Part shown: in pieces, positions 8,975-63,694 of the stretch
Numbering within the stretch: the first letter of the stretch is position 1
Layout of the letters: every line of letters starts with the position of its first letter
Origin: Clostridia bacterium
GTDB lineage: Bacteria > Bacillota > Clostridia > TANB77 > CAG-508
NCBI GenBank assembly: GCA_016290095.1
Contig: JAEESU010000025.1
Coordinates: 8,161 to 72,160, forward strand
Direction: 5' to 3'
Length of the DNA: 64,000 bases
Made by a program: the position numbers and the translations under genes
Notes under the pieces: generated by a model
What the model was told of the DNA's origin: nothing
What the model saw: only the letters and a program-made list of their open reading frames with translations
Databases searched by the model: none

Positions 8975-9040
8975 GCCTTTTGGCTTGTTTTTTTTTGAGT
9001 TTTGCTATATAATTCTAAATCAGATGAGAGGAGAAAAATT

Positions 9041-9331: not shown

Positions 9332-9343
9332 ATTGAGGAAGGT

Positions 9344-9940: not shown

Positions 9941-11415
9941 TGGAACTTTATGAATATACAGCACATGAATTAGCTGATATGCTAGAAGAGAGAAAAACTA
10001 CTTCAGTAGAAATAACAAAAAGTTACTTTAGTAGAATTAAAGAAATAGATCCTAAAGTAAAAGCATATGTCACAACTTTGGAAGAGAGTGCTTTAAAGAA
10101 AGCAGAAGAGGTTGATCAAAAAAGAAAAAATGGAGAAAAAGTTTCAAAATTAGCAGGTATTCCAATAGGAATAAAAGATAATATTTGTATTACAGGAGTA
10201 AAAACAACTTGTAGTTCAAAAATGCTTGAAAACTTTGTTTCTCCATATGATGCTTCAGTAATCGAAGATATTAATAGAGAAGATATGGTTTATCTTGGAA
10301 AATTGAACATGGATGAATTTGCAATGGGAAGTTCAACAGAACATTCTGCATTTTTCAAGACATCTAACCCATGGGATTTAGATAGAATACCAGGAGGATC
10401 CTCAGGTGGAAGTGCAGCAGCAGTTGCTTCTAACATGGCACCATGGGCGCTAGGAAGTGACACAGGTGGAAGTATTCGTCAACCAGCATCACTTTGCGGT
10501 GTAGTTGGATTAAAACCAACATATGGATTAGTTTCAAGATATGGTTTAGTAGCATTTGCATCTTCACTTGACCAAATAGGACCTTTAACAAGAGATGTAA
10601 CAGATTCAGCACTTCTTCTAAATATAATTGCAGGTCATGACGAAAAAGATTCTACCTCAAGCAGTAGAGAGAAAAAAGATTATACAAAATCTTTAGTAAA
10701 TGATGTAAAAGGAATGAGAATAGGCATTCCAAAAGAATACATCGGAGAAGGAATTAATCAAGAAGTAAAAGATGCTATTTTAAGAGTTGCCAAAAAATAT
10801 GAAGAATTAGGTGCAACAGTAGAAGAATGTTCTTTTTCAGCAGGAAAGTATGCTACAGCAGTTTATTATATTATTGCTGATGCAGAAGCAAGTTCAAACT
10901 TAGGAAGATTTGATGGAATCCGTTATGGATATAGATCTGAAAAAGCAGATTCAATGGAAGATATATTTAGAAATTCTAGAAGTGAAGGATTTGGACCAGA
11001 AGTAAAAAGAAGAATTTTATTAGGTACTTATGTACTTTCTTCAGGATATTATGATGCATATTATAAAAAAGCTCAAAAGGTTAGAACAGTTATTAAAGAA
11101 GCATTTAATGAATTGTTTAATAAATATGATTTATTATTAACACCAACTTCTCCTACGACAGCATTTAAAATGGGAGAAAAAATGGACAATCCACTTGAAA
11201 TGTATTTAGCTGATATTTGTACAGTTCCAATCAATATAGGAGGTGTTCCAGCAATATCTGTTCCATGTGAATTAGATAAAGAAGGACTACCAATAGGATT
11301 CCAATTAATAGGAAACTCATTTGAAGAGGAAAAGATACTAAGAGCTGCTTATACATATGAGCAGAATACAAACTTTAAAGAGAATAAACCAACATTTAAA
11401 GGAGGTAAGAACTAG
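9940..11415 (+). CDS. gatA: Asp/Glu-tRNA amidotransferase subunit A
   Basis: Amidase signature [12 protein letters not shown]. Confidence 0.93.
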
Positions 11416-12855
11416 ATGCTAAGAGATGATTATGAAATGGTAATCGGTTTGGAAGTTCACTGTGAGCTTTCTACAAAGACAAAACTATTTTGTTCATGCC
11501 CTACAACATTTGGAGGAAGCCCTAATACACACTGTTGTCCAGTTTGTACGGCAATGCCAGGAAGCTTACCAGTATTAAATGAAAAGGTTGTAGAATATGC
11601 TGTAAAAGCAGGACTTGCTACAAATTGTAGTATTGAAAAAAACAGTAAAAACGATAGAAAAAACTATTTTTATCCAGATAATCCAAGATCATACCAAATT
11701 TCTCAGTATGATAAGCCACTTTGCTATGAGGGATATGTAAATATAGAAACAGAAAATGGAGAAAAAACTATAAGAATTGAGAGAATTCACATAGAAGATG
11801 ATGCTGGAAAATTAAATCATGATGAATATGGAAGAGGAAGTTTTGTTGATTTAAATAGAGCAGGAATTCCATTAATAGAAGTTGTTTCTAAACCAGATAT
11901 GAGAAGTCCAGAAGAGGCAGAAACCTATATGAGAAAATTAAAATCAATTTTCGAATATATAGGGGTATCTGATTGTAAAATGGAACAAGGTTCATTAAGA
12001 GCAGATGTCAATGTTTCTGTTAGAAAAAAAGGTTCAGAAAAATTTGGAACAAGAACAGAAATGAAAAATATGAGTTCATTTAGAAGTATAGTAAGAGCAA
12101 TTAGCTATGAAGCTGAAAGACAAGTAGATGTAATAGAAAATGGTGGAGTTGTAGAGCAAGAAACATTAAGATGGGATGATATTTCAGGAAGAACATTTAC
12201 AATGAGAAGTAAAGAAAATGCTAATGACTACAGATACTTCCCAGAGCCAGACTTAGTTGCAATTAGACTTTCAGATGAATATATTGAAAATGTTAGAAAT
12301 TCTTTACCAGAACTTCCAGAATCAAAGAGAAAAAGATATAAAGAAGAATATGAATTATCAGATAAAGCAGCAAATTTTGTTGTATCTTCTAAATATTATT
12401 CAACACTTTTTGAAGATTCAATTAAAGTATGCAACAATCCTAAAGCAGTAGGAAACTTTATAATGGGCGATATAGCAAGAATTTTAAATGAAAGAGAAGA
12501 AGAACCTGATAGTTTAGAATTTACAGGAAAAGAATTAGGAGAGTTAGTTACTTTAGTTGATAAAGGAACAATAAGTTCAGCAATAGCTAAAAAAGTGTTA
12601 GAAGAGCTATTTGAAGAAGTTAGAATGCCAAGCAAAATAATAGAAGAAAAAGGCTGGGTTCAAATTTCTGACGAAGGTGCTATTAAGGAAGTAGTAAATA
12701 AGATTTTAGAAGCAAACCCACAATCTATTGCAGATTATAAAGCTGGAAAAGATAGAGCATTAGGATTTTTAGTTGGACAAGCAATGAAGGAAACAAAAGG
12801 AAAAGCGAATCCGCAGTTACTAAACAAGTTGTTTTTAGAAGAATTAAATAAATGA
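11416..12855 (+). CDS. gatB: Asp/Glu-tRNA amidotransferase subunit B
   Basis: VIGLEVHCELSTKTKLFCSC.. and the C-terminal GatB/YqeY region. Confidence 0.93.
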   Translation: MLRDDYEMVIGLEVHCELSTKTKLFCSCPTTFGGSPNTHCCPVCTAMPGSLPVLNEKVVEYAVKAGLATNCSIEKNSKNDRKNYFYPDNPRSYQISQYDKPLCYEGYVNIETENGEKTIRIERIHIEDDAGKLNHDEYGRGSFVDLNRAGIPLIEVVSKPDMRSPEEAETYMRKLKSIFEYIGVSDCKMEQGSLRADVNVSVRKKGSEKFGTRTEMKNMSSFRSIVRAISYEAERQVDVIENGGVVEQETLRWDDISGRTFTMRSKENANDYRYFPEPDLVAIRLSDEYIENVRNSLPELPESKRKRYKEEYELSDKAANFVVSSKYYSTLFEDSIKVCNNPKAVGNFIMGDIARILNEREEEPDSLEFTGKELGELVTLVDKGTISSAIAKKVLEELFEEVRMPSKIIEEKGWVQISDEGAIKEVVNKILEANPQSIADYKAGKDRALGFLVGQAMKETKGKANPQLLNKLFLEELNK

Positions 12856-13133
12856 TTTTTTGTGACACGTTTCAGAAATCATTTAAAAATATGGGCAATA
12901 TTTACAAGAACAAGGCTTTACTAAATTAGATAGTGATAAACTTTTTTGCGTAAAAAATAATTACGAAACTAATTCTTTTATGTTTATTATTGTAAATGGA
13001 GCACAAGCAAATTATAAAGTAATATATGGAAGATACGAAGATTACTTAGATAAATTTGAATTAAAAAATGAATAAATAGTAACTAATTTTGGGATGTCTC
13101 TCAAAGAATCGAACTAAATATAAGGGGAATAAA

Positions 13134-13718
13134 ATGGACAATATAAGTGTATTTACTGGACCAATGAAATCAGGAAAGAGCAGTCATATCATTGCTGAAG
13201 CAAAAGAACAAAAGAAAAATGGAAGAAAAGTATTAATATTTAAACCATCTATGGATGACAGATTTGGAATAGACTATGTTACAGATAGAAATGGAAACAG
13301 ACTTCCTGCAATTAATATTTCATCAATAGATGACCTTGAGAGATTTGATGCGGAATACTATTTTATAGATGAATTTCAATTTTTAGACGGTGACTTGGAT
13401 ACTATAACAAGATTAGCAAGTAGAGGGAAAAAATTTTTTATAGCTGGACTTGATCTTACAGCTGAGAAAAAAGACTTTGGAAAAATGGGAGAATTAATGC
13501 AGTTATCTAATGACGTTAAAAAATTTTCAGCTAGATGTGACTATTGTGGAAAAGAAGCAATTTATTCATTTTGTTTAGCACAGAAAGATGGAGATGTTTT
13601 AGTAGGTACTGATGATATTTATAAAGCTGTTTGTCCAGATTGCTATGAAAGATTGTCTAGAGAAAAAACTAGAAGTAGCGCATTTAGAAGATTCGAAGAC
13701 GATGATGATGCAAGATAA
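13134..13718 (+). CDS. tdk: thymidine kinase-like protein with C-terminal extension ending DDDDAR
   Basis: P-loop GPMKSGKS, Walker B-like FIDEFQF, Zn ribbon CDYC..CPDC. Start moved to ATG 13134 behind a GGGGA SD. Tail is ..RRFEDDDDAR-stop. Confidence 0.75.
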   Translation: MDNISVFTGPMKSGKSSHIIAEAKEQKKNGRKVLIFKPSMDDRFGIDYVTDRNGNRLPAINISSIDDLERFDAEYYFIDEFQFLDGDLDTITRLASRGKKFFIAGLDLTAEKKDFGKMGELMQLSNDVKKFSARCDYCGKEAIYSFCLAQKDGDVLVGTDDIYKAVCPDCYERLSREKTRSSAFRRFEDDDDAR

Positions 13719-15783: not shown

Positions 15784-16809
15784 ATGCTTAAAGAGCCAAA
15801 CACATGGAAGGACACAAATACACATTTTGTGAAAGCTCTAAAAAATGATTGGTACAAACAATTAGTTTTATTAGAGAATTTAATTACAGAGGAAACCGTA
15901 AAGTTTTACGGAAAAAAAGGAATTATGACTATTCATTTGCCAGTTACTACAGGTTCGATATCGAGTCCAATGGGAAGAGGCAGTGACTCAAAACCTGTAA
16001 AAGTCAACTTAGAAGGCGTTGATACATATTTGGCAGATTCTATGCAATTCCTTTTAGAATATGGATGTAGATTAAGTGAAAAAGGATGTTATTATGTTAT
16101 GCCGTCTTTTAGAGGTGAATTAGCAGATGAAAGACATTTATGCCAGTTCTATCATAGTGAGGCAGAAATACCAGGTAGTTTGGAAGATGTAATGAGTTTA
16201 GTTGAGCAATATGTTAAGTATTTATCAAAGAGAATTTTAGTTAAAATGGGTGACACATTAAAAGAAACAGTAGGAGATATTAGTCATATAGAAAAAGTTG
16301 CAAAACATAGAGGAAGATTTAAAAGAATTACATTTGATGAAGCAGAAAGAGTATTAAAAGAAAGATTTCCAAAAAATATTTCTGATTATATAGAATACGA
16401 GGATGGCTGGAGAAATATAACAAGAAAAGCAGAAAAAGAACTTATTAATATTTATGGTGGAGTTGTTTGGGTTACAAATTATGACGAACTAGCAGTTCCA
16501 TTTTATCAGAAATTAGATGACAAAATTAAAGGTACAACTCGAAATGCAGATTTACTAATGGGAATAGGAGAAACTATAGGTTGTGGAGAAAGACATGAAG
16601 GGCATAAAGAATTATTAAAAGCATTAGAAAGACATTGTGTATTACCAGAAGAGTATGATTGGTATATTGAAATGAAGAAAAAGTTTCCACTTCAAACCGC
16701 TGGTTTTGGTATGGGAGTAGAAAGATACTTAATGTGGGTATTAAAAGCAAAAGATATAAGAAACATGCAAATATGTTTAAGATTTAATGGAGAAAATATC
16801 TTACCATAA
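15784..16809 (+). CDS. AsnRS/AspRS-like class IIb catalytic core without anticodon-binding domain (archaeal AsnA-like)
   Basis: Motif 2-like FRGELADERHLCQFYHSEAE. Motif 3-like GFGMGVERYLMWVLKAKDIRN. At 341 aa there is no OB-fold N-domain. Confidence 0.7.
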   Translation: MLKEPNTWKDTNTHFVKALKNDWYKQLVLLENLITEETVKFYGKKGIMTIHLPVTTGSISSPMGRGSDSKPVKVNLEGVDTYLADSMQFLLEYGCRLSEKGCYYVMPSFRGELADERHLCQFYHSEAEIPGSLEDVMSLVEQYVKYLSKRILVKMGDTLKETVGDISHIEKVAKHRGRFKRITFDEAERVLKERFPKNISDYIEYEDGWRNITRKAEKELINIYGGVVWVTNYDELAVPFYQKLDDKIKGTTRNADLLMGIGETIGCGERHEGHKELLKALERHCVLPEEYDWYIEMKKKFPLQTAGFGMGVERYLMWVLKAKDIRNMQICLRFNGENILP

Positions 16810-16820
16810 GGAGAAAGAAT

Positions 16821-17951
16821 ATGTTGTTATTAAAAAATGTATTATTAAATGAAATAAAAACAGATATTTTTATTTCAGATAATAAAATTACAAAAATTGG
16901 AAAATTAAATGAAAGAGACTTTAAAAAGGTTTTTAATAATATTGAGGTAATTGATTGTGACAATAAATATATTATTCCAGGATATATAGATAATCATGTT
17001 CATATTACAGGAGGTGGAGGAGAAAAAGGTTTTTCTTCTAAAGTTCCGGAGATAAAATTAAGTGATATTATTTCTAGCGGTGTTACAACAGTAGTTGGAG
17101 TTTTGGGTACTGATACAATTACTAGAAGTGTTGAGAACCTTGTTTCCAAAACGAAAGCATTAAATGAGGAAGGAATAACAGCATATTGTCTAACAGGTGG
17201 ATATGAATTTCCATCACCAACATTAACAGAATCAGTCCAGAAAGATATAGCTTTTATTAATGAAGTTATTGGTGCTAAGATTGCTATTTCAGATCATAGA
17301 TGTTATAACCCACTTAAAGAAGATTTAATTAAATTGATGTCAGAAGTTAGAGTAGCATCTCTTATAAGTGGAAAAAAGTGTAGTGTAAATTATCATGTAG
17401 GTTGGGGAAAAGGAAGTATGAGTCAGCTATTAGATATATTATATGAAACTAATATACCGGCTGATTTAGTTAGACCAACTCATATTACATGTACAGATAC
17501 AGTTTTTGAACAAGCAATAGAAATGGCAAAGAATGGATCATATGTAGATATTACAGCTGGAGAAAATGTTGAAAAGAGTGTTACATATATTATTAAGTCT
17601 TTTGAAAAAGGAATTAGTGATATGTTAACTGTTTCTTCAGATGGTAATGGATCAGTACCAATTTGGCAAGATGGTAAATGTATAGGAATGAATGCACATT
17701 CTCAGATAGGATTACATAAAATTATTAAAGAGTTAGTTAAAACTCATAATTATAAATTGCAAGATGCAATTAAAATTTTAACAGTTAACCCTTCAAATGC
17801 ACTTGGTTTAACTCAAAAAGGAGAAATAAAAGAAGGAAAAGATGCAGACATTCTTATATTAGATCATAATTATGATATTGATAGTGTTATTGCAATGGGA
17901 AAAGTTTTCATGTTAAATAAAAATATTATGAGAAAAGGAATGTATGAATAA
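16821..17951 (+). CDS. iadA: isoaspartyl (beta-aspartyl) dipeptidase, amidohydrolase superfamily
   Basis: PGYIDNHVHITGGGGEKG matches the IadA signature region. Size is about 376 aa. Confidence 0.75.
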   Translation: MLLLKNVLLNEIKTDIFISDNKITKIGKLNERDFKKVFNNIEVIDCDNKYIIPGYIDNHVHITGGGGEKGFSSKVPEIKLSDIISSGVTTVVGVLGTDTITRSVENLVSKTKALNEEGITAYCLTGGYEFPSPTLTESVQKDIAFINEVIGAKIAISDHRCYNPLKEDLIKLMSEVRVASLISGKKCSVNYHVGWGKGSMSQLLDILYETNIPADLVRPTHITCTDTVFEQAIEMAKNGSYVDITAGENVEKSVTYIIKSFEKGISDMLTVSSDGNGSVPIWQDGKCIGMNAHSQIGLHKIIKELVKTHNYKLQDAIKILTVNPSNALGLTQKGEIKEGKDADILILDHNYDIDSVIAMGKVFMLNKNIMRKGMYE

Positions 17952-18612
17952 AATGTTAAGTAATGAAAAAGAAGTGTTACAAAGCAGAGAAAAAATATTT
18001 AATTATAATAAGTTTAATAAATATGAAAAAACAATAGATAAATTACAAATTCCAAAAATATTCGATTATAAAAATTGTATACCTATAGCATTTTCAATGG
18101 ACAATTATAGTGAAATAAAGAAATTTAAAGTGGGTGAATACCAAGTGTTATATAAAGAAATGAAGAATTACATTAGAAATGAAGGGGTGGATGCTAATAG
18201 GGATGTAATTGTGATAGTTCATCCATTTTATCCAACTATAAGACATGCCAACTTTTTAATTGAATATAATGATTATTTTAAAAAATATATTGATTATGAA
18301 GAGAAAATTACAAATATGTTAGAAAGTAAAAATTCAAATATAGTATTATTTGAAAGTCCAGATAATTTTGCAAGATATACTTACAAATTTTATGATAACA
18401 ACAGCATAAAAAATGTTGTTTTTACTGAGCATTCAAATGGAAAGGTATTAGACAAAGAAGATTTAAAAATATTTAGTGGTGTAAAAAGATGCATTATCAT
18501 GGGATGCTATGGACAGTATTGTTTAAAGGATGTTAAAGATCAATTAGAAGAAATGGGAATTGATGTTATTTGCGATAAAGAATTAATATTAGAAAGAGCA
18601 ATAGAAGTGTAG
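17944..18612 (+). CDS. hypothetical protein (operon member, no family recognised)
   Basis: Overlaps the upstream stop by 8 nt, consistent with translational coupling. Confidence 0.55.
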   Translation: MNKMLSNEKEVLQSREKIFNYNKFNKYEKTIDKLQIPKIFDYKNCIPIAFSMDNYSEIKKFKVGEYQVLYKEMKNYIRNEGVDANRDVIVIVHPFYPTIRHANFLIEYNDYFKKYIDYEEKITNMLESKNSNIVLFESPDNFARYTYKFYDNNSIKNVVFTEHSNGKVLDKEDLKIFSGVKRCIIMGCYGQYCLKDVKDQLEEMGIDVICDKELILERAIEV

Positions 18613-18621
18613 GAGGTATAT

Positions 18622-19893
18622 ATGCGAAAAGTTGTATTAGTAGGTGGTGCAACAGGAAGAGAACATGCAATAGCAAAACAATTTTATGAGCAAGGATATG
18701 AATTATCTGCAATATTATGGGCCGAAAATGAGTATGTTAAAAAATATTGCAATGGAAAATATCTTAGAATTGATTTAAATAAAGTTGAAGAAGTTTTTGA
18801 AGCTATAAAAGAAATAAAACCAGATTATGTTATGATAGGTCAAGGTGAAGTAATACAAAGAGGTTTATGTGATTTGCTTAAAGAAGTAAATATTCCATAT
18901 ATTGGGCCAACAAAGAAATTGGCTCAATTAGAAGGATCAAAAACATTTTGTAGAAATCTTCTAGAGGAAATAGATGATTCATTGAATCCAAAACATAGAG
19001 ACTTTTATGAAATATCAAAAGAATTAGAAGATTATATTAATGATTTTAGTACAAAAATTGTTGTAAAATGTGATGGAGTAATTACAGGTCCACGTGTAAG
19101 AATTTATGAAAATAATCAAAAAGATGAAGCTATAAAAAATGCCAAGAACTGGTTAGAACAATATGGTCACATAATTGTTGAAGAATTTATTAATGGACAT
19201 GAAGTTGCTATAATGAGTTACACTGATGGAAAAAGCCTTGTACATACACCTGTATTTAAAAATCATAAAAGAATAGGTGAAAATAATACAGGAGAAAATA
19301 CTTCAGGAATGGGAACAATAACTGGAAAGGAGTGTTTTCCATATATATCAGAAACTGCAATAGAAAAAATGCATGAGATAACAGAAAAAGTTATGAAAGT
19401 AATAACAGAGAAATACAACGAAAAATATATGGGAAGCCTTTATGGAGAATTCTTGGTTTCTGAAGATGATGTAAAGGTAATTGAATATAATTGTAGATTT
19501 GGAAATCCATCTATGATGAACATTCTAGCTATAATGAAAATTAGTTTTCCAGAATTATGTGAGCACATTTTAAATGGAACTATTAATGAATTAGACAATA
19601 TTTTTGATGAAGAAAGTGTAAGTTTATCTGCATATGTTGTGCCTAAAGATTATACTGTAAATAAAGATTATGTTGGAACAGAAGTTGATTTTTCTGAAGT
19701 TGATGAAGATATATTTTATTGCGGAAATATGAATTATGAAAATGGAAAGTTTTATTTAAAAAATAGTAGAGCATTTGCTGTTTGTATAAAAGAAAAGAAT
19801 ATATCTGCGGCAAGAAAAAGAGTTTATGGAGAACTAGAAAAAGTAAAAGGTAACATTTATTATAGAAAAGATATTGGGGAGGTTTTAGCGTGA
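18622..19893 (+). CDS. PurD-like ATP-grasp ligase (phosphoribosylamine-glycine ligase family paralog)
   Basis: VVLVGGATGREHAIA, EEFINGHEVAIMSYTDG, GENTSGMGT and VIEYNCRFGNPSMM parallel the PurD motifs. Confidence 0.7.
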   Translation: MRKVVLVGGATGREHAIAKQFYEQGYELSAILWAENEYVKKYCNGKYLRIDLNKVEEVFEAIKEIKPDYVMIGQGEVIQRGLCDLLKEVNIPYIGPTKKLAQLEGSKTFCRNLLEEIDDSLNPKHRDFYEISKELEDYINDFSTKIVVKCDGVITGPRVRIYENNQKDEAIKNAKNWLEQYGHIIVEEFINGHEVAIMSYTDGKSLVHTPVFKNHKRIGENNTGENTSGMGTITGKECFPYISETAIEKMHEITEKVMKVITEKYNEKYMGSLYGEFLVSEDDVKVIEYNCRFGNPSMMNILAIMKISFPELCEHILNGTINELDNIFDEESVSLSAYVVPKDYTVNKDYVGTEVDFSEVDEDIFYCGNMNYENGKFYLKNSRAFAVCIKEKNISAARKRVYGELEKVKGNIYYRKDIGEVLA

Positions 19894-20468
19894 AAATAGG
19901 ATTTGATTTGGATGGAGTAATATTAGATAATACAAGTTTTAAAGTTAAAATGTTTAAAGAGCTATATGATATGAATTTTGAGGATTGGCAGGTTTCATCT
20001 AATATTATTGATGAGTATGTTCCTGACAGAGAAATAAGAAGAAGCGTTGGAAAATTAGCCAGTACAAGAGAAATTGCGAGAATCTTAGACACAAAATGTG
20101 TTGAAGTATTAGCTAAATTAAAAGCTGACGGAAATGAATTATACATTGTCAGCAGAAGAGGTAAATCTGATGATGGACAAAAAGCTGCCTTAAGGACAAT
20201 CAAAGAACTTAATTTAGGACAGTATTTTGAAGATATTATTCTTTGTGAGACAGAAGAAGATAAAATAAATACAATAATTAATAGAGGAATAAATATTTTT
20301 ATAGATGATAGAATAGGTGTTGCTGAAGGAGTATATGGAAAAATAAATTGTAGTTTACTATTTGATAATTTTGAATTAGTAGATAGACATCTAATAAAAA
20401 TGGAAAAACCAATTTCATGCGTAAGAAGTTTTGAAGACATAGAAAGAGAGGTTCAGAAATATGAATAG
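19890..20468 (+). CDS. HAD-superfamily phosphatase (NT5C-like, paralog of 9344-9940)
   Basis: GTG start overlapping the upstream stop (GTGA). Motif I FDLDGV, ..LYIVSRR.., ..NIFIDD.. Confidence 0.65.
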   Translation: MKIGFDLDGVILDNTSFKVKMFKELYDMNFEDWQVSSNIIDEYVPDREIRRSVGKLASTREIARILDTKCVEVLAKLKADGNELYIVSRRGKSDDGQKAALRTIKELNLGQYFEDIILCETEEDKINTIINRGINIFIDDRIGVAEGVYGKINCSLLFDNFELVDRHLIKMEKPISCVRSFEDIEREVQKYE

Positions 20469-21408
20469 CATCGAGGAATATAAAGAAAAAATTGAAAGAG
20501 CAATTAATGGTAAGATAGATAAAATTGAATTAATATCTAAAACAAATAATATAGTATTAAGATATGCATTAAATGGTATATATTATTTTGCAAAGTTTTA
20601 TAAAGATGGGGAAACTCATACAGATAATGAAGTTTTATTATATGAAAATATTCCAGTAGAGGGGAGAAAATACTTAAAAAATTTAGTTTACTCAAATTTT
20701 GAAACTGATGAAAGTGAAAAATTTGCAATTTATGAAGAGGTAAAAGGGAAGACATTAGCAAGTTTGCTTGATAATAACGCAGTAAATGAAGAAATGGCTG
20801 GAAAAATTGCAAAAGAATTGTTAAACTATTTTAGAATCGTATCTAAAATAAATAGTACTAATTATGGAAATCTTGCACATAATTTCGATGGAAATTATGT
20901 GGATTTTCTTCAATATTTGTATGAATATCAATTTAAAACTACAGAAACTCTTTTTTTGGATAGTAAAACTAGAGGAATATCATCATTACCTTATGAGTTA
21001 TTATCAAAATATGCAGATTTGTTAGATGAAGGATATAGTTGTGTTACACCTATTGATTCCAATTTCAAAAATATTATGATTACTGATAAAGGGGAAGTAA
21101 AAATAGTGGATCCAGGAGCAATTGTAAGTGCTCCGATGAGTATGGGATTAGGAGAATTAGTAGCCCACTCTTATGGAACAATTATATATGATAAGCTAAT
21201 TGAAGAGATGCATCCTACATCAAAAGATAAAAAGAGATTAAGTATATATGGAATCTTGTCATCAATGAATGTTATGGCATTTTTAGTAAGGAACAAGATA
21301 GGTGATATTAATACAAGTAAACCGTTTGGAAATAAAAATACATTTTTTGAATTAATAAGAGGACATTTAGGAGTTATACAGAAAGAAGATATTGTAGAAG
21401 AAAGATAG
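20461..21408 (+). CDS. kinase-fold protein (aminoglycoside/choline phosphotransferase-like)
   Basis: Catalytic-loop-like PIDSNFKNIMI and ..KIVDPGA.. Overlaps the upstream stop by 8 nt. Confidence 0.5.
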   Translation: MNSIEEYKEKIERAINGKIDKIELISKTNNIVLRYALNGIYYFAKFYKDGETHTDNEVLLYENIPVEGRKYLKNLVYSNFETDESEKFAIYEEVKGKTLASLLDNNAVNEEMAGKIAKELLNYFRIVSKINSTNYGNLAHNFDGNYVDFLQYLYEYQFKTTETLFLDSKTRGISSLPYELLSKYADLLDEGYSCVTPIDSNFKNIMITDKGEVKIVDPGAIVSAPMSMGLGELVAHSYGTIIYDKLIEEMHPTSKDKKRLSIYGILSSMNVMAFLVRNKIGDINTSKPFGNKNTFFELIRGHLGVIQKEDIVEER

Positions 21409-21419
21409 ATGGAGTAAAT

Positions 21420-22334
21420 ATGGTAGGTTTTTATAGATTAATTGATGAAAATGGTGCAGAAAATGAAATTGCTATTGATTCATTTAAAAAAGAAAAAGAA
21501 ATTTATAACACTTATTTCAAAAAAAATAATAAAGAACCAAATAATATTAATATAGAAAATATGAGTTATTCTCCAATTTATGTAGATAAAGATTTGGAGT
21601 GTTTTTCAAAATTAAAAAATATTATAGAAAAAAACATAAAAGAAAAACTAAATGTAAATGAAATAAAAACGCCTAACATACTAGAGAATAATGAAAGATT
21701 TGTAGAGTTACAAAAGCTTTTTGGATTAGAACAATTTATTTGCAATAATAATTATATTCTTCCACCTGCAAGTGATTTTGCAGTTTTCGAATGGTTTAAA
21801 GGAAGAGATATAGTAAAAAAAGAAATACCATACAGAATATATGAATTTGCTAAATGTTACAGAATAGAGGAAAAAGAAAAACAGACAAATGTGCTTAAAA
21901 GACCTACTTCTTTTCATCTTCCTGATATTCATGTTTTTCATGATGAGGGAAGCTATGAAGAATGTTTAAAACATTTGCAAATATATGATAATGTTTTAAA
22001 TGAATTAGATATTAAACATGATTTAGCTTTAAGAATAACTGAGGAAGAATATAATTTTCATAAAGATAAAATAATAGAGATTTCAAAAAAACTAAACAAA
22101 AAAATGATTGTAAATGTTGTTCCTAGTTCAATAAAGTATTGGGAATCAAAATTTAAATATATATACATAGATAGTCAAGAAGATGTTGTTCAATTGTCAA
22201 CAGTTCAAGTAGATTATAGAACATCTAAATTATTTAATATAAAAATAGAAGGGGAATATGCGAAAATAATTCATTCTTCAATTGGAAGTATGGAAAGAGT
22301 GATGTATGCGTATTTAGATAAATATAATGATTAA
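21420..22334 (+). CDS. class IIa aaRS-like catalytic core (Thr/Pro/Ser-RS type) lacking an anticodon-binding domain
   Basis: Motif 2-like CYRIEEKEKQTNVLKRPTSFHLPDIHVF. Motif 3-like SIGSMERVMYAYL. Length is 304 aa. Confidence 0.6.
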   Translation: MVGFYRLIDENGAENEIAIDSFKKEKEIYNTYFKKNNKEPNNINIENMSYSPIYVDKDLECFSKLKNIIEKNIKEKLNVNEIKTPNILENNERFVELQKLFGLEQFICNNNYILPPASDFAVFEWFKGRDIVKKEIPYRIYEFAKCYRIEEKEKQTNVLKRPTSFHLPDIHVFHDEGSYEECLKHLQIYDNVLNELDIKHDLALRITEEEYNFHKDKIIEISKKLNKKMIVNVVPSSIKYWESKFKYIYIDSQEDVVQLSTVQVDYRTSKLFNIKIEGEYAKIIHSSIGSMERVMYAYLDKYND

Positions 22335-22890
22335 AATTGCTGTAACAGGTCCACATTGTTGTGGGAAAAGTACTGTTTTGAAAAAAGTGAGTAGTATTTT
22401 ATCTGAAAATAAAAAAATAAATTTCGAAAAATTCGATGGTAGTGATTCTCCAGTTGATTATAGTAGTTCAGAATATTTGAAAAATAATAATAAGGCAGAA
22501 ATTGATATTACATATTGGATGATACAGAAACTTATTAAAAGAGAAATAGATCTTGAGTATAGTAATAAGGAAATTGCTGTATTAGATAGATGTATTATAG
22601 ATCAAATAGTATATCCATCAGAATTATTAAGTGAAGAATACACAAATGATATTTTTGGCTTTATCAAATTATGGATGAAAATTCATCCATATGACATTGT
22701 TTTTTATATTCCACAAAATAATGAATTATTGCAAAAATATGGCAAAAAAGATAAAAGTTCAGAATATTTGAAAAATATTGAAAATAGATATTTTTCAGTG
22801 TTAGAACAATTGAAAATAAATTATATAGTTTTACCAAAAGATCAAGACGAACAGGTTAGAATAATAGCAGATTACTTAAGTAATTTGTAG
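22327..22890 (+). CDS. P-loop NTPase / nucleoside(-tide) kinase-like protein
   Basis: Walker A VTGPHCCGKST. Overlaps the upstream stop by 8 nt. Confidence 0.6.
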   Translation: MIKIAVTGPHCCGKSTVLKKVSSILSENKKINFEKFDGSDSPVDYSSSEYLKNNNKAEIDITYWMIQKLIKREIDLEYSNKEIAVLDRCIIDQIVYPSELLSEEYTNDIFGFIKLWMKIHPYDIVFYIPQNNELLQKYGKKDKSSEYLKNIENRYFSVLEQLKINYIVLPKDQDEQVRIIADYLSNL

Positions 22891-23000
22891 AAGGAAAAAA
22901 AGCTTGACAAGGCTGATATAATATACTCGAGAGGAAATTGTATTTGACAACAAATACAATAATGTTAAAAATTCGATTAATTACTAATAAGGGGAATTAT

Positions 23001-23579
23001 ATGGACGAAGAAAGGAAAAAATTTTTGGCATCAATTCGAGTAGAAAAAGAGAATCATCCAACAATTAAAAAAAGTAAAGGAATTATTTATCCTAATTACT
23101 TAGTAAAAAATGGTATAGATGGATTAACTCATATTGATCATGTTACTCATTTGGGAATTAAAATAGGAGAACAAACATATACAGACGAAGAGATATTACA
23201 TATTGCTTTAGGTTGCTTACTTCACGATGTAGGTAGAGGTCGTGAACTTCCGGGACAAAGACATGGAGCAGCAGGCGAACCATTAGTTAGAAGTATTTTA
23301 AAAGACAGATTTTTTCAATACTTTGATATAGATGTTGATAAAATTGCATATGCTGTAAAACATCATGATGAAGGAAAAGTAATAAGAGATAGAATAATAG
23401 GAGGCATATGGGATGCGGATAGATTATCGCTGTTTAGATTCCCATCTAAAGTGATAGATTTAAGCTTACTTTCAACAAATGAAGCTAAAGAATTACTCTC
23501 ATATGCTAAAAAATATATTGAAGATAATATGGGTGAGTATAACAGAGATCGTGAGTCTGATGACGATGATGCAAGATAA
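23001..23579 (+). CDS. HD-domain phosphohydrolase with C-terminal tail ending DDDDAR
   Basis: LLHDVGR, KHHDEG and WDADRLS motifs. Start moved to ATG 23001 behind a GGGGA SD. Tail is ..NRDRESDDDDAR-stop. Confidence 0.7.
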   Translation: MDEERKKFLASIRVEKENHPTIKKSKGIIYPNYLVKNGIDGLTHIDHVTHLGIKIGEQTYTDEEILHIALGCLLHDVGRGRELPGQRHGAAGEPLVRSILKDRFFQYFDIDVDKIAYAVKHHDEGKVIRDRIIGGIWDADRLSLFRFPSKVIDLSLLSTNEAKELLSYAKKYIEDNMGEYNRDRESDDDDAR

Positions 23580-23660: not shown

Positions 23661-24983
23661 TTACGGTGTGAGACGCTTGGGGTTCCTAGATACCAGGGTT
23701 ACAGCACGAATGTTGGGGAGGCCAAGCATTTTCATAATAAGCCTTGCCAGACCAAATCCGAAACCACCATGGGGAACAGAACCATACTGGAAGAAGGTGA
23801 GATAGTCCTTGAGGGATTCCATCAGTTTGCTGTCCTTTTCAGTTTTTTCCTTTTCGAGGATCTGAGAAACGAGGACATCATACCGGTGTTCTCTCTGGGC
23901 GCCAGTTGTTACCTCAACACCACGATAAATCAAGTCGAAGCTCTTGGTAAGAGTGGGGTTAGATTCGTGGCGCATGTGGTAGAAAGGACGGACGCTTACA
24001 GGATAATCTGTCACAAAAACAAAATCGTGGCCGTAGTGCTGTTCAACATATTGGCCGAGAAGCTGTTCTTCTTCAGGACTCAGGTCGTTTTCTTTTTGAG
24101 ATACACATCCGAATTCTTTCTTAAGGATTTCCTTGACTGTCGCGAGGGGAATCCGAGGGAAAGGTGTAGACGGAACGATAATCTCTTTTCCATACAGTTC
24201 CTGAACTCTGCTACCAAGCTTTTTGGCAGCAACCGCCATAAAGTACTGGATCCATTCTTCTTCCAGTTTCATGACATCTTCATGGCTTTCAATCCAAGAA
24301 ATCTCTGCGTCGACACTGATGAACTCAGTTTCGTGCCTAGAGGTAAAACTCGGATTAGCGCGGAAAACAGGACCAATCTCGAAAACCTTTTCGAATCCAG
24401 CGTTCATCGCCATCTGCTTATAAAATTGAGGCGACTGAGCCAGGTACGCAGTTTTTCCGAAGTATGGAACGGAGAAAAGTTCGCTACCAGATTCGGAGCT
24501 TGTTCCCATGAGTTTGGGGCTGTGAATCTCAATGAAATTGTGGTCGGACCAATACTGACGCATTGCCTGTTCGATAACCGTGCTGAGCTCGAAGATGAGC
24601 CGGTTTTCAGGAGCACGAAGCTCAAGAAATCTCCAGTTCATTTTGAGTTCTTGAGAAGAATTTTCGTCGATAGGGAGCTCTGCCGGTGCTAGGGAAACCA
24701 CATTGATTTTTTGGGGAAGAATCTCAATGCCACCGAGCTTTACACTGGGATTGTGATAAACTTCGCCAAAAATTTCCACGGTGGAATTTACAGTGAGAGT
24801 AGAACAGATGCTGGCCAGCTCAGGATTTTCCTCTTTGCTAACAAAAATCTGCACAGAACCACTGAAATCCCGGACGACCAAAAAAATGAAACGTTTGGTG
24901 TTACGTACGCTTGCGACAAAACCACAGATTTTTACGTCTGATGGTGCAATTGCAGCAAGACTTCCAATGAGATTCCTGTTCAT
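23661..24983 (-). CDS. aspS: aspartyl-tRNA synthetase, archaeal/eukaryal type (short form, no GAD insertion); GC-rich cassette 2
   Basis: N-terminal OB fold, QSPQFYKQ, motif 2 FRANPSFTSRHETEFISVDAE, motif 3 GGFGFGLARLIMKMLGLPNIR. Length is 440 aa. GAAGGAGG SD. Confidence 0.88.
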   Translation of the reverse strand: MNRNLIGSLAAIAPSDVKICGFVASVRNTKRFIFLVVRDFSGSVQIFVSKEENPELASICSTLTVNSTVEIFGEVYHNPSVKLGGIEILPQKINVVSLAPAELPIDENSSQELKMNWRFLELRAPENRLIFELSTVIEQAMRQYWSDHNFIEIHSPKLMGTSSESGSELFSVPYFGKTAYLAQSPQFYKQMAMNAGFEKVFEIGPVFRANPSFTSRHETEFISVDAEISWIESHEDVMKLEEEWIQYFMAVAAKKLGSRVQELYGKEIIVPSTPFPRIPLATVKEILKKEFGCVSQKENDLSPEEEQLLGQYVEQHYGHDFVFVTDYPVSVRPFYHMRHESNPTLTKSFDLIYRGVEVTTGAQREHRYDVLVSQILEKEKTEKDSKLMESLKDYLTFFQYGSVPHGGFGFGLARLIMKMLGLPNIRAVTLVSRNPKRLTP

Positions 24984-33912: not shown

Positions 33913-35347
<1,435 letters not shown>

Positions 35348-35356
35348 GGAGTTAAA

Positions 35357-36712
35357 ATGGAAGAGAGTTTAATTAATATTAGCCCTGTTGATGGCAGATA
35401 TAGAGAACATACAGAAGAAGTAAGAAAATATTTTAGTGAATATTGCTTAATAAAAAATAGAATTATAGTTGAAATAAAATGGCTTCAGAAGATGTCAGAA
35501 GTTCCAGAAATCGATTTTAAATTATCAAATGAAGAATATGATGTTCTTGAAAGTATTACTTCTAAATTTGATTTAAATGAGAGCAAAAGAGTAAAAGAAA
35601 TTGAAGATATAACAAAACATGATGTAAAAGCTGTTGAATATTATATTAATGAGAAATTAAAGGAAAATGGGTTAGAAAAATATTCTCCTTTTGTACATTT
35701 TGCTTGTACATCTGAAGACATTAACAATTTAGCATATGGGATAATGATAAAAGAATTATTAGATAATGTATATTTTAAAAATGCTGAAAACCTTATTAAT
35801 CTATTAAAAGAAAAATCAAGAGAATATTCTGGAATACCAATGCTTTCTCATACACATGGACAACCAGCTACACCAACTACTGTTGGAAAGGAATTAGCTA
35901 ATTTTGCATATAGAATGAATAAGATTCTTGAAAAAATAAAAAGTGAAAAATTAGCTGGTAAATTTAGTGGAACAGTTGGTAATTTTAATAGCCATATCAT
36001 AGCTTATCCTAATATTGATTGGTTAAAAATAAATAAAGAATTTGTGGAGAGTTTTGGGCTTGAGTTCAATAAATATACTACACAAATAGAATCACATGAT
36101 AACATTTGTATTATTTTTTCAGAAATAAAATTACTAAATAATATTATTTTAGATTTTGATAATGATATGTGGATGTACATTAGTAGAAACTATTTTATAC
36201 AAGAAAATATTTCTGGGGAAGTTGGATCATCAATTATGCCACATAAAATTAATCCAATAAATTTCGAAAATTCAATGGCAAATTGTAAAATGTCAAATGG
36301 TGTATTAGAAGTATTTTTAAATAATCTTCAAATATCAAAAATGCAAAGAGATTTAAGTGATTCATCTATACTAAGAAATATAGGTATGGCAATTGCTTAT
36401 TCTATAATTGCTATAAAGCAGTCAGTAAAAGGAATAAAAAGAGTTAAAGTAAATGAAGATGTTTTGACTAGAGAGTTAGAGGAAAATCCAGAAATTATTG
36501 CAGAGGCTATACAAACTATATTAAGAAAAAATGGATATCAAAATGCATATGATATTTTGAAAGAGATGACAAGAGGCAAAGTGGTTACATTAGAAAGTAT
36601 GAGAGATTTTATTAGTAAGTTAGAAATAAACCAAGATGATAAGAATAGATTAATGGAATTAGTTCCTCAGAAATATTTAGGACTTGCAAAAGAGCTATCA
36701 GAGGGAGTATAA
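35357..36712 (+). CDS. purB: adenylosuccinate lyase
   Basis: Fumarate-lyase signature GSSIMPHKINPINFEN. Confidence 0.93.
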   Translation: MEESLINISPVDGRYREHTEEVRKYFSEYCLIKNRIIVEIKWLQKMSEVPEIDFKLSNEEYDVLESITSKFDLNESKRVKEIEDITKHDVKAVEYYINEKLKENGLEKYSPFVHFACTSEDINNLAYGIMIKELLDNVYFKNAENLINLLKEKSREYSGIPMLSHTHGQPATPTTVGKELANFAYRMNKILEKIKSEKLAGKFSGTVGNFNSHIIAYPNIDWLKINKEFVESFGLEFNKYTTQIESHDNICIIFSEIKLLNNIILDFDNDMWMYISRNYFIQENISGEVGSSIMPHKINPINFENSMANCKMSNGVLEVFLNNLQISKMQRDLSDSSILRNIGMAIAYSIIAIKQSVKGIKRVKVNEDVLTRELEENPEIIAEAIQTILRKNGYQNAYDILKEMTRGKVVTLESMRDFISKLEINQDDKNRLMELVPQKYLGLAKELSEGV

Positions 36713-36735: not shown

Positions 36736-37080
36736 ATGTTAAAGATTAAGATGAATCTAAACATGCAAGATCAAGTATTAATAGAAAACAAACTATTACC
36801 TGCGATTTTAACTTTTTATGAATTGCCAGATAGAGAAAAGGCTGAAATTTTTGTAAGAGAGTTTTTTGCAAAGTATTGTGAAGAGAGAAATTTAGATAGA
36901 AAAGCTGTATATAGCTTTTTGCAACAAAGAATAAAAGATATGTCAGAATTTAATAAAAATATTAGTCCAAAACTAGCTGATGAATTAGGCTCAATAGTGC
37001 TTACAGAAAAAGAAAGAGGAAAAGCAAGGAACCCTAGAACGCCAAAAGCTAAGAGAAAAAACGATGATGATGCTAGATAA
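36736..37080 (+). CDS. hypothetical small protein ending ..KRKNDDDAR (start uncertain: 36736, 36751 or 36763)
   Basis: ORF of about 105-114 aa. Basic C-terminal stretch followed by the DDDAR-stop tail. No family recognised. Confidence 0.55.
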   Translation: MLKIKMNLNMQDQVLIENKLLPAILTFYELPDREKAEIFVREFFAKYCEERNLDRKAVYSFLQQRIKDMSEFNKNISPKLADELGSIVLTEKERGKARNPRTPKAKRKNDDDAR

Positions 37081-57123: not shown

Positions 57124-57199
57124 TCACCCTGAACTTGCGAAACTCTTGAAAAATAATGTGAATCAATATATAATACTTAAAGTGGAAGGAGGTTTTGAG

Positions 57200-60371: not shown

Positions 60372-60372
60372 A

Positions 60373-61358: not shown

Positions 61359-61363
61359 AAGTT

Positions 61364-63694
61364 TTGATTACAAGTAATGAAATCTTAAATCATTATGATA
61401 TAATACGATTAGAAAAATATATTCAAAGGATGACTATGGAAGAGACAAAAGATGATTTAATTGAATATTTTCATGCTGAAAAAATCGAAAGAATAAATGG
61501 TTGCATTATTAGTATGCGTGAGCATAAAAACGTAGATGCTGAAAAACTTTTAGAAGAACATCCAGAATTAAAGGATAAGTATGTTTATCTAAAGGGTATT
61601 AGAGTATTAGTAGATAAACAAAGAGCAGCTCAAATTGATAACCCTACAGGGATTGCGGCACTTAGTCCGGAAGATGTAATTACATTAAATAATAGTGGAG
61701 TTTTAGAGAATCCCAATATTCAATTTAATTTGATTTTACGTGATGCACCAGAGAATTCAGATAGACCTTCAAATGTTAGTAAGTTTAGGCAAATTAGAGC
61801 AGAACTTGGCAATAATATGAGGTCTATAAGCAATATAAATGTTTATGGTCCAGGGTATGGACTTTTGACTAGAATTGATAATTGGACAGATGAAGAATTA
61901 ATAGATTTCTGTTCAAAAATTCCTGCGTTAACTATTAATCTTAGTCAGCCAATAGAAGCTATTGATAGACTAAGAGATGTAATATTTTCAAATCCCGAAT
62001 TAAATGAACATTTTCTTGTTGATGGAAATTATATTGTTAATGTAGACAAAGCTAGTGGTATAGAAGATAATGACGGAATATCATTCGATAGAAATCCTGA
62101 AGAACCTGAAAGTTTACGTTGGAAAAAACTAGCAAAATTTATACAAAAAAATAAAGGTTGTGCTGTTGAAGAGCGAATTAGAAATTTATCAGAAATTCCA
62201 GATGAAATTTTAGATACAATTGATGAATCTTCTAGAATAAAATTTGTAATACAACTTGGAAAAGATGGCAAGAAACAAGATTACATATATTCTGCTTATG
62301 AAATAAAACTTATAAAAGAGCAAATAACTGCTTTAGAAAAAGGAATAGCTAGTGGCTGGACAGATAAGGATTTAACTGAATTTCTTGGTGAATTAGATTT
62401 TTTGGATTTTAATTTTATACAAGATGAAATGTTAGCATCTAGAATAAAACTACTTTTAAATAATATTTCAGAATTAAAAAATAAATTTTTAATGTTAGAA
62501 GAAGGTACAAGAGTGGTTAATTGTGAGGCCACTCAACCAATAAGTCGAATATTTACTTTTCCGAAAGACCAAAGCATGGAAGACGACTCATATTCTCATA
62601 AAGTAGCAACTTTTGTAAAAAACAATCCTGGTCAGACATGTAGAATAAAAATATCAGGATTAAAAGATTTAACTGTAGAAGACTTAGAAATTTTAAGCCA
62701 GCATGAAGATAGAGTAAAGATTGGAATACCAAAGGGACAATATGATCCCAATAACACATTTGATGTATATAACCCAAATGAGATGCTAACAATCAGGAAG
62801 AAAATGGATGAATTACTAGCTGGAATAGATCCTAATGCACCTGAAATGAGAAGATGTGGAGAAATATATAGAAGAGTATGTAATGCGTTCACATATGATT
62901 ATCCAGCAGTATATCCAAAAACACCAGAAGAGGAAGAATATTCTCAAAGAAATTCTGTAAATTGCAGAAACTTAAGAAATGCACTTTTAGAAGGAAAATG
63001 TGTTTGTGCAGGATATGCAGATGTTTTAAGACAAGCCTTTAATATGTTTGGAATAGAAGCAGAATATGTAGTAGGAGATTGTATAGATCAACCAATTTCT
63101 GAAGCAAAATATAATAAACATAAAGATGATGAAGAATATAAATTTAAAAGAGTAATAAAAAATGAAGATGGAAAAGTAACTCTTGGAGATAGACATGCTT
63201 GGGTAAAAGCAAAAATAGATGGCAAATGGTATAATTTCGATCCAACATTTGATGCTGATAGTTATGCTAGAGAAGGAATACCAAAATATGTATTCCTTTC
63301 AGATGATGAAATCTCAGATCATGGAAATTCAAGAATATCAATGACAGGACCAGAATGTAAAGATTCAATGCCAATATATACACAACCACCACAATTTATA
63401 AAAGCAGATGAAGTAGAACATAAAGAGGAAAAGAAACCTAGTGTAGTTGGTAAATTATTTACTGTATTATTTGAAAAGATAAGGAATACTTTTAAAAGAA
63501 AAGATCAAAAATTATTAGATTCCGGGCAACAAGAAGGAAGCATGCCGAATGCTGGAGCAATGAAAAAAACAGAAGAGCAATATCCATCATGGGATTTAAG
63601 AGGATATAAAGATGCTAAAAAGATTATAGCTCCACAACAAATAAGTACAAAAGATAGGAATTTAGATGGCAAGGAGAAGGATGATGGTAGATAA
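61364..63694 (+). CDS. large protein with C-terminal transglutaminase-like Cys-His-Asp core (start uncertain; ATG 61430/61436 possible)
   Basis: CVCAGYADVL, DRHAWVKAKIDGKWYNFDPT. Confidence 0.7.
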   Translation: MITSNEILNHYDIIRLEKYIQRMTMEETKDDLIEYFHAEKIERINGCIISMREHKNVDAEKLLEEHPELKDKYVYLKGIRVLVDKQRAAQIDNPTGIAALSPEDVITLNNSGVLENPNIQFNLILRDAPENSDRPSNVSKFRQIRAELGNNMRSISNINVYGPGYGLLTRIDNWTDEELIDFCSKIPALTINLSQPIEAIDRLRDVIFSNPELNEHFLVDGNYIVNVDKASGIEDNDGISFDRNPEEPESLRWKKLAKFIQKNKGCAVEERIRNLSEIPDEILDTIDESSRIKFVIQLGKDGKKQDYIYSAYEIKLIKEQITALEKGIASGWTDKDLTEFLGELDFLDFNFIQDEMLASRIKLLLNNISELKNKFLMLEEGTRVVNCEATQPISRIFTFPKDQSMEDDSYSHKVATFVKNNPGQTCRIKISGLKDLTVEDLEILSQHEDRVKIGIPKGQYDPNNTFDVYNPNEMLTIRKKMDELLAGIDPNAPEMRRCGEIYRRVCNAFTYDYPAVYPKTPEEEEYSQRNSVNCRNLRNALLEGKCVCAGYADVLRQAFNMFGIEAEYVVGDCIDQPISEAKYNKHKDDEEYKFKRVIKNEDGKVTLGDRHAWVKAKIDGKWYNFDPTFDADSYAREGIPKYVFLSDDEISDHGNSRISMTGPECKDSMPIYTQPPQFIKADEVEHKEEKKPSVVGKLFTVLFEKIRNTFKRKDQKLLDSGQQEGSMPNAGAMKKTEEQYPSWDLRGYKDAKKIIAPQQISTKDRNLDGKEKDDGR

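Follow-up and report, generated by a model that had tools for sequence, protein, structure and literature searches.

A shared Asp-rich, arginine-ended C-terminal tail on unrelated proteins of an uncultured gut Clostridia bacterium: a candidate docking motif

In a stretch of 64,000 nucleotides (nt) from a Clostridia bacterium (NCBI GenBank assembly GCA_016290095.1, contig JAEESU010000025.1, positions 8,161 to 72,160 of the forward strand; this whole stretch is called the window below), three unrelated proteins, namely a thymidine kinase (TK), an HD-domain phosphohydrolase and a small helical protein, were found to share the C-terminus DDD(D)AR, directly followed by the stop codon. Taken together with the tails of orthologs, it defines the motif [DE]2-5-[AV]-R-COOH, which unrelated proteins have acquired independently within a narrow clade that has seldom been sampled. 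Our leading interpretation, whose chances we would put a little short of even, is that the tail is a C-terminal docking motif for one shared, putative reader. The tailed genes and their relevant parts (lengths in amino acids, aa; pLDDT, predicted local distance difference test) are as follows.

13134..13718, + strand: tdk, type II thymidine kinase, 194 aa, ends FRRFEDDDDAR (Pfam TK, E = 6e-34, residues 3-171)
13665..13718, + strand: TK C-terminal extension, residues 178-194 (solved thymidine kinases align within residues 3-177 only)
23001..23579, + strand: HD-domain phosphohydrolase, 192 aa, last gene of its operon, ends RDRESDDDDAR (Pfam HD)
36736..37080, + strand: small helical protein, 114 aa as open reading frame (ORF), directly after purA-purB, ends KAKRKNDDDAR
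37018..37062, + strand: basic disordered linker of the small protein, residues 95-109 (pLDDT ~52-64)
37063..37080, + strand: DDDAR codons and TAA of the small protein (tail identity 0.79 in homologs)

The translations of the three ORFs agree with an earlier note on this DNA, which had claimed the common DDD(D)AR-stop end. When the six frames of the window were searched with a regular expression, in-frame DDDAR-stop sites were encountered at these three places only. All window statistics refer to 64 non-overlapping ORFs of one genome, among which DDDAR and DDAR occur three times each, every time at the C-terminus. The same note had judged a shared C-terminus of this kind unlikely by chance, and the calculations bear this out. 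Under a model of independent, identically distributed residues with the composition of the last 20 residues, the probability that at least three of the 64 C-termini read DDDAR is about 1e-15, the probability that any one 5-mer closes at least three of them is about 1.5e-7, and none of 20,000 simulated proteomes reached three shared ends. Besides the three tails, the only Asp-run C-terminus in the window is a DDGR look-alike confounded by a gene overlap (see below), and the disordered tails of other window proteins end otherwise, e.g. in EEKKKKA or NSKKETI. Within the window, the Asp-run tails form a discrete class of C-termini. The three genes that carry them are real: two have Pfam matches, and the third has homologs, synteny and a confident helical model.

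In TK, the codons of DDDDAR occupy positions 13698-13715 and are followed by TAA (13716-13718). Residues 178-194 (EKTRSSAFRRFEDDDDAR), in which a basic stretch precedes the Asp run, are regarded as an add-on, since no solved thymidine kinase aligns outside residues 3-177. Among the 120 best homologs, the extension was detected only in the four closest orthologs (71-99% identity), which end on FRRFEDDDDAR, FRRFENDEVR, FRRIEDDSEEAR and FKHFRDDDAR; their tail cores (DDDDAR, NDEVR, DDSEEAR and RDDDAR, respectively) are all of the type acidic-[A/V]-R. The other 116 listed orthologs (at most 69% identity) are without an acidic-[A/V]-R extension, and most of them stop about 10 residues past the CxxCY zinc motif. 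In one ortholog tail, the arginine is encoded by AGG instead of AGA, and this synonymous change argues for a constraint on the peptide and not on the DNA. Judged from this distribution, the TK tail is a lineage-specific gain on a housekeeping enzyme. The gene itself lies directly after gatB, in the order gatC, NT5C-like gene, gatA, gatB, tdk (window 9002-13718), the gene between gatC and gatA being that of an NT5C-type 5'-deoxynucleotidase. This order is kept in locus L175 (3917-8323), where TK is 71% identical. The coupling of deoxynucleotide-salvage genes to an amidotransferase operon is an unusual pairing.

The small protein is encoded downstream of two purine genes:

33995..36712, + strand: purA (33995-35347; Adenylsucc_synt, E = 4e-173) and purB (35357-36712; Lyase_1 and ASL_C)

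Its probable start is at 36751, since homologs begin with MNLSMQD, and this corrects the start at 36736. The small protein had been described as an orphan. It is indeed without a Pfam or NCBIfam match, but it is not strictly an orphan, as six homologs (56-97% identity) were retrieved from 5.8 billion clustered proteins. All six are tailed, with NADDAR, DDDEAR, DDDDAR (three of them) or DDDDVR. Averaged over pairs of family members, identity amounts to 0.75 for the folded core and 0.79 for the tail, but falls to 0.35 for the basic linker between them. The tail stands out as a conservation island at the extreme C-terminus, the signature of a short linear signal. The AlphaFold2 model of the protein consists of a helical bundle (residues 10-94, pLDDT 82-92), followed by a 20-residue segment of low confidence, and no significant fold match was found in the PDB (none with E < 3). 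The succession purB, small protein, fur, rubrerythrin is retained, and the same position between purB and fur is seen in loci L189 and L191.

In the HD gene, the DDDDAR codons lie at 23559-23576 and the stop codon at 23577-23579, after which come a hairpin and a T-run. The AlphaFold2 model (mean pLDDT 86.6) shows a generic HD/phosphodiesterase fold, and its last 12 residues have a pLDDT of about 38. An ortholog at 88% identity ends on ESNGDDGCR; orthologs at 47-58% identity end mostly on ..DFExxxx[FL]ER, without an Asp run.

For the clade as a whole, a set of 13 tailed sequences was considered, i.e. the three of the window and ten orthologs. All 13 end in arginine, 12 have Ala or Val directly before it, and two to five acidic residues come ahead of that position. 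The tail is under purifying selection, which acts on the peptide. In the models of the HD and small proteins, the last 12-20 residues have pLDDT values of about 38-52 and no helix or strand is assigned to them; the tails of these two proteins are thus predicted to lie outside the folds and to be disordered, which would make them accessible to a partner. The claim of the earlier note that the tails lie beyond the recognisable folds is supported by the TK structures, which stop at residue 177, and by the low pLDDT in the other two proteins. Its further claim, that the acidic run follows a basic disordered extension, applies to TK and the small protein but not to the HD protein, in which the stretch before the Asp run contains two Arg and is net acidic. 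Short, disordered, conserved with respect to their flanks and convergent on unrelated proteins, the tails have the general properties of short linear motifs.

The tail is neither an assembly artefact nor an engineered tag, since independent assemblies and variant-tailed orthologs carry it. Proteins identical to those of the window lie on independent contigs of a metagenome assembly, GCA_016295045.1, orthologs from other, independent metagenomes carry the tail in nature, and DDDDAR differs from both the FLAG peptide DYKDDDDK and the enterokinase site DDDDK.

In order to follow the tail beyond the clade, the exact 18-mer GAYGATGATGCWAGATAA was sought in genome, metagenome and viral contig collections. 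In GTDB-representative genomes (596 Gb, the source genome not being among them), 50 matches were obtained, which is about the back-of-envelope chance number, and most of them are not gene ends. Nine of the 50 lie in metagenome-assembled genomes (MAGs) of gut Clostridia with a guanine-cytosine (GC) content of 24-29% (Lapin bins, Candidatus Scatovivens, uncultured Clostridium), and all nine are in-frame ends of long ORFs. The metagenomes gave at least 117 matches; among the matches listed, 16 of the 23 on contigs below 32% GC end ORFs of at least 60 aa, some of these ORFs being cut by the contig end. None of the 11 matches in viral contigs falls at the end of a long low-GC ORF. Among the low-GC matches listed, 21 of 29 are in-frame gene ends, compared with 43% expected from a codon model (p ~0.001).

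The low-GC tail carriers belong to about 20 unrelated families among the matches listed. They include a Fic protein, two BspA-type leucine-rich repeat (LRR) proteins, a GT4 glycosyltransferase, a metallophosphoesterase and many proteins without a Pfam match. Basic residues usually precede the Asp run, and no evident signal peptide was noticed when the N-termini of the Clostridia-type carriers were read by eye. The exact tail is common to homologs that are only 44-45% identical (pairs L022/L035 and L144/L168). The first pair belongs to a protein of about 100 aa, encoded downstream of typA/bipA, which has a ..W[IL]EE.. segment and a basic stretch and keeps DDD(D)AR in four low-GC Clostridia (L022 4213-4518; L035 124-438; L070 2-262; L130 ~7420-7700, with a homopolymer frameshift in an A-run). 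The second pair consists of the BspA-type LRR proteins (L144 109-2490, 793 aa; L168 3466-7596, 1376 aa), which have no signal peptide, end on ..[DT]KDDDAR and are 45% identical. In a Candidatus Scatovivens MAG (L039 1-7889), three large proteins without Pfam match around topA, one of which is cut at the contig start, end on ..DRDDDDAR, ..KPIDVGR and ..TSTDEGR, which hints that, in that genome, many proteins may end on a looser [DE]-x-[AG]-R.

The look-alike mentioned above is the following gene.

61364..63694, + strand: transglutaminase-like protein, ends KEKDDGR (Pfam Transglut_core); left out of the motif set

Its last codons, GAT GAT GGT AGA TAA, contain the ATG (63684) of a downstream gene for an LRR-like protein of about 200 aa, so that the two genes overlap by the last 11 nt, the start ATG lying within GATGATGG (63680-63694). 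The same overlap is present in L187 (5656-5666) and L190 (6394-6404). The DDGR end was excluded because the gene overlap constrains it and so imitates the tail motif. In the same region of the window, spo0A (60503-61327) separates the transglutaminase-like gene from an Impact_N/DUF1949 gene, whereas L187 and L190 have no spo0A at this place (L187 2640-5666 compared with window 59751-63694).

A docking motif is favoured because the tail is short, disordered, C-terminal, conserved relative to its flanks and convergent, and because the tails form a discrete class. Bacterial docking signals are usually C-terminal peptides on flexible linkers, such as the tip of the single-stranded DNA-binding protein (SSB), the chemoreceptor pentapeptide NWETF, the ssrA tag and encapsulin cargo peptides. 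According to our proposal, the tail would present an acidic run, a small residue (Ala, sometimes Val) and a terminal Arg with a free carboxylate on a flexible, often basic linker. One putative reader would bind this peptide, the Asp run lying in a basic groove and Ala/Val-Arg-COO- in a pocket. Shared docking would give unrelated proteins the same handling, the likeliest being adaptor-mediated delivery to an AAA+ unfoldase or protease for regulated turnover; tethering to a common assembly would be an alternative. A disordered tail with a free end is a natural entry point for AAA+ machines, a C-terminal degron controls human TK1, and in Bacillus enzymes of nucleotide biosynthesis are degraded when the cells starve. 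We infer the existence of the reader, and its identity and the events that would follow binding are proposed on the same footing.

With more reserve, it may be suggested that [DE]2-5-[AV]-R-COOH, carried on a flexible basic linker, is an undescribed address tag of an uncultured clade of spore-forming, low-GC gut Clostridia, with a charged code opposite to the non-polar one known so far. A dedicated reader of this tag would route unrelated cytosolic proteins, nucleotide-salvage enzymes included, to a common fate. That this fate would be either adaptor-mediated AAA+ unfolding and degradation or entry into a shared complex or compartment is likewise a tentative proposal, which we hold to be somewhat doubtful. 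No published description of a DDDAR/DDDDAR motif was found in the literature, and the statement of the earlier note that it knew of no described D4-A-R signal remains valid, in that no paper of the library searched has the motif in the relevant sense.

Each tailed gene of the window has a nucleotide-metabolism context: tdk by its own nature, the HD gene near NT5C-like and dTMP-kinase-like genes, and the small-protein gene after purAB. This theme is retained as a lead only. A nucleotide-metabolism hub was considered and rejected, as PurA, PurB, NrdD, NrdG, Upp, both NT5C-like proteins, a PNP-family phosphorylase (57146-57937) and the dTMP-kinase-like protein are untailed, and the tailed proteins outside the window are not nucleotide enzymes. 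A secretion signal was also considered: the Fic, LRR and glycosyltransferase carriers without signal peptides suggest effectors. Export of TK and of the HD protein was deemed unlikely, and no secretion-system genes were seen.

The window also encodes, at 47380-50637, a protein of 1085 aa with two AAA modules and AAA_lid_6 domains, whose N-terminal region (about 550 aa) is uncharacterised. We take its AAA/AAA_lid_6 domains to be of the SpoVK/CbbX/EccA family, members of which engage the C-terminal tails of their clients (CbbX on Rubisco). On that assumption, it is a candidate reader; nothing in the data links it to the motif.

Several observations weigh against a docking motif. In a sister species, the motif is loose (NDEVR in TK, NGDDGCR in the HD protein). 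Clustering of all neighbour genes of 41 low-GC sequences (40 loci and the window) revealed no recurrent partner family. Outside the window's clade, the enrichment of the tail is modest, and a loose match to it was found in one of about 260 non-ascertained neighbouring genes. Furthermore, the tail density is known from 64 genes of one genome only; the value of 3/64 is exceptional and may be clade-specific or due to a local cluster. The version in which the tail leads to degradation has to face additional data: acidic residues at the C-terminus are reported to be disfavoured by Lon and ClpXP, ends in Arg or Asp ranked with the most stabilising of a Lon reporter and gave the longest half-lives, and Asp or Ala at preceding positions raised resistance (PMC11986505). 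Degradation by Lon or ClpXP would need an adaptor, or another machine would have to be involved, because such ends are disfavoured.

Some of these observations would also be accounted for by the main rival explanation, which we consider unlikely but worth serious attention. The tail could be a protease-evading cap (an anti-degron) that acts without any reader. Disordered basic extensions would be entry points for Lon, ClpXP and tail-specific proteases, and a narrow optimum, combined with GAT-repeat expansion, would make the protected ends converge. Every residue of DDDAR is of the stabilising kind (PMC11986505), the tails close disordered extensions, and the neighbour genes of the 41 low-GC sequences offer no partner. 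The loose versions NDEVR, DDSEEAR and NGDDGCR of a sister species point to a requirement that looks loosely physicochemical, and distant HD orthologs as well as transglutaminase-like homologs across Clostridia tend to be acid-rich at their ends, with R or E. However, mere avoidance should yield many solutions, yet three proteins share one 5-mer, and in none of the 13 tailed sequences of the clade has the terminal Arg given way to Asp, Glu or Lys. The other disordered tails of the window are without such an ending, and a cap gives no account of why TK gained its extension.

The earlier note had also speculated that the enzymes of the operon closed by the HD gene modify or read the Asp-rich tails. 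The genes concerned are listed here as context, not as demonstrated members of a tail system.

15784..22890, + strand: eight-gene operon upstream of the HD gene (Pfam and NCBIfam matches)

The order is AsnA-like, beta-aspartyl peptidase, a protein of 222 aa of unknown function, PurD-like ATP-grasp, HAD/NT5C-like, a second unknown protein (315 aa), ThrRS-core-like and dTMP-kinase-like, with the HD hydrolase last. The AsnA-like protein corresponds to a class II ligase core, and the beta-aspartyl peptidase scores 352.8 bits against the TIGR01975 cutoff of 331.25; the profile matches agree with the earlier description of an aminoacyl-tRNA synthetase-like/ATP-grasp/isoaspartyl-dipeptidase operon. 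The same gene order, with the HD gene last, occurs in distant Clostridia (window 15784-23579; L003 2055-10576; also L005, L006, L007, and throughout L003-L007). The copies of these relatives comprise ten genes, including one for an S51 peptidase, and the window copy, which is without S51, comprises nine.

That the tails would be substrates or recognition elements of this AsnA-like/PurD-like/beta-aspartyl-peptidase operon, for example by C-terminal ligation or beta-aspartyl branching, seems to us highly improbable. A tailed HD gene does close the operon, the operon encodes Asp-directed chemistry (including the S51 aspartyl-peptidase-family gene in relatives), and carrier-protein systems such as LysW/LysX and scaffold-peptide ligases use acidic C-termini. 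On the other hand, the terminal residue of the tail is Arg and not an acylatable acid. In L003-L006, the HD protein of the same operon ends on NNFER, and Asp-run tails are absent from all proteins of those loci; most distant HD orthologs likewise end on ..[FL]ER. TK and the small protein sit in the gatCAB-tdk and purA-purB operons, the same tail is found on contigs with unrelated neighbourhoods, and the S51 peptidase of the relatives' operon has been lost from the window copy. On these grounds, the link between tail and operon is not supported. The operon looks like an uncharacterised aspartate- or nucleotide-linked pathway. A full-length AsnRS/AspRS-like gene adjoins it (23661-24983, minus strand). 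Its 315-aa protein (20461-21408) ends on ..KEDIVEER and on ..KEENDLEK in relatives (L003 6781-7752), and acid-rich ends closed by R or K are seen on several proteins of this operon family.

Even less credit can be given to an element acting at the level of nucleic acid or translation, i.e. GAYGATGATGCWAGATAA as a DNA or RNA site, a mobile footprint, a termination context or a hidden start, and this reading is largely refuted. When the window was searched with the query GATGATGATGCAAGATAA, allowing up to three mismatches, only positions 13701-13718, 23562-23579 and 37063-37080 matched, all three strings being at most one base away from it. The earlier note had drawn attention to this resemblance of the 3' ends. 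Their near-identity is confirmed, but an identity beyond codon bias is not, because the codon usage of the window (GAT 87%, GCA+GCT 91%, AGA 80%, TAA 74%) predicts as much. Neither the remaining frames nor the opposite strand nor the intergenic DNA holds a further copy, the flanks of the 18-21 nt strings have no mutual similarity on either side, and Rfam finds nothing in the window. A DNA repeat or mobile-element footprint was rejected for want of further copies within three mismatches and of flanking similarity. The 3' contexts differ as well (a 62-nt spacer, a terminator hairpin and a promoter-like TGTGATATAAT), and orthologs vary in nucleotides and length yet keep acidic-[AV]-R. GATGATG does hold ATGs, and in the transglutaminase-like gene such a start is real. 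As hidden ORFs, those at the TK and small-protein tails were discarded, with 6 and 13 codons, respectively, and so were those at the HD tail, where the ATGs lie inside a +1-frame ORF running into the terminator.

Finally, chance, charged low-GC composition or an assembly or tag artefact can hardly be believed: the C-termini of the window are rich in K, E and R and the 50 genomic matches to the 18-mer are about as many as chance would give, but chance is refuted for the window by the probabilities above (~1e-7 to 1e-15), and the tail, which is not DYKDDDDK, is kept in orthologs from independent samples and assemblies.

The window, whose contig measures 78 kb, is part of the chromosome of a spore-forming, low-GC, uncultured gut Clostridia bacterium. 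It has 29% GC, with nearly all genes on the + strand, and contains smc, gatCAB, tdk, asnS, adhE, nrdD/nrdG, purA/purB, fur, rubrerythrin, rpsT, pth, an RNase E/G-family gene, a MiaB-like gene, upp and spo0A. A phage origin was rejected, the match to phage records being only marginal and smc, gatCAB, purAB, nrdDG, upp, spo0A and rpsT being present. An alternative genetic code was ruled out by the stop codons (TAA 43, TAG 9, TGA 6) and by the long ORFs under table 11.

Few C-terminal signals (ssrA, Lon degrons, the SSB tip, NWETF, cargo peptides) have been described in bacteria to date, and most of them are hydrophobic. If the docking motif is real, a charged, Arg-ended tail would be a new recognition code and would imply an unknown reader, and a peptide of 6-8 residues, usable directly as bait, would make uncultured gut Clostridia more accessible to experiment. 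If the tail is an anti-degron, it would be the first proteome-level case of sequence-specific protease evasion and would provide a compact stabilising tag for protein expression in Gram-positive bacteria. There is a point for annotation too: when a housekeeping enzyme such as TK has a C-terminal extension restricted to one lineage, this extension is easily dismissed as noise.

Among known systems, the SSB tip (..DDD[IL]PF-COOH), which docks a dozen or more genome-maintenance proteins, likewise has a disordered linker that drifts, an Asp run and two defined end residues with a free carboxylate. It ends on the hydrophobic Pro-Phe, whereas the DDDAR tails end on Ala-Arg or Val-Arg, and it belongs to an OB-fold single-stranded DNA-binding protein and not to a TK, an HD hydrolase or a helical bundle. 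One protein there addresses many partners; here, many proteins would imply one reader. The chemoreceptor NWETF is also a conserved pentapeptide at the end of a variable linker, where it serves as a tether for CheR/CheB, but unlike DDDAR it is aromatic and hydrophobic, is confined to one family and has a known reader. Encapsulin and microcompartment cargo peptides are, like the present tail, shared C-terminal peptides placed after a linker on unrelated enzymes. They are hydrophobic (GSL-type) or form an amphipathic helix, in contrast to the Asp-rich DDDAR, which is modelled with low confidence. Their genes usually adjoin a shell gene, and no encapsulin or bacterial microcompartment Pfam domains were found among the window genes scanned.

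The degrons of AAA+ proteases (ssrA ..LAA for ClpXP; x-[LI]-[LIV]-H for Lon) resemble the tail in that about five C-terminal residues with a free end are involved, on a few percent of unrelated ORFs; such degrons act autonomously. However, they are non-polar, whereas DDDAR is charged, and acidic and Arg ends are reported to be disfavoured (PMC11986505). As regards mimicry of the tag encoded by transfer-messenger RNA (tmRNA), no tmRNA genes were found in the window or in 30 related loci. With the eukaryotic Arg C-degron (Cul2-FEM1) and the C-end rule (neuropilin, R/KxxR/K-COOH), the tail has in common a terminal Arg with a free carboxylate; these systems are eukaryotic and have other upstream residues, so that the likeness is an analogy only. 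Cul2-FEM1 and neuropilin recognise the terminal Arg and the Lys/Arg C-end, respectively. As to stabilising ends, Bowie and Sauer in 1989 and Parsell, Silber and Sauer in 1990 are said to have found that charged, especially acidic, residues among the last five stabilise proteins. Those tails were engineered or selected and varied in sequence, and we know of no description of a natural, conserved, sequence-specific cap shared across a proteome. Sortase and exosortase signals need a transmembrane helix, a basic tail and a signal peptide, and the DDDAR tails are without a hydrophobic segment. Carriers of the LysW/RimK type end in a modified Glu or Asp carboxylate, whereas these tails end in Arg and do not track the operon. 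Shared C-terminal peptide signals are known as a class, and the present tail differs from them in its charged, Arg-ended chemistry and in its lineage.

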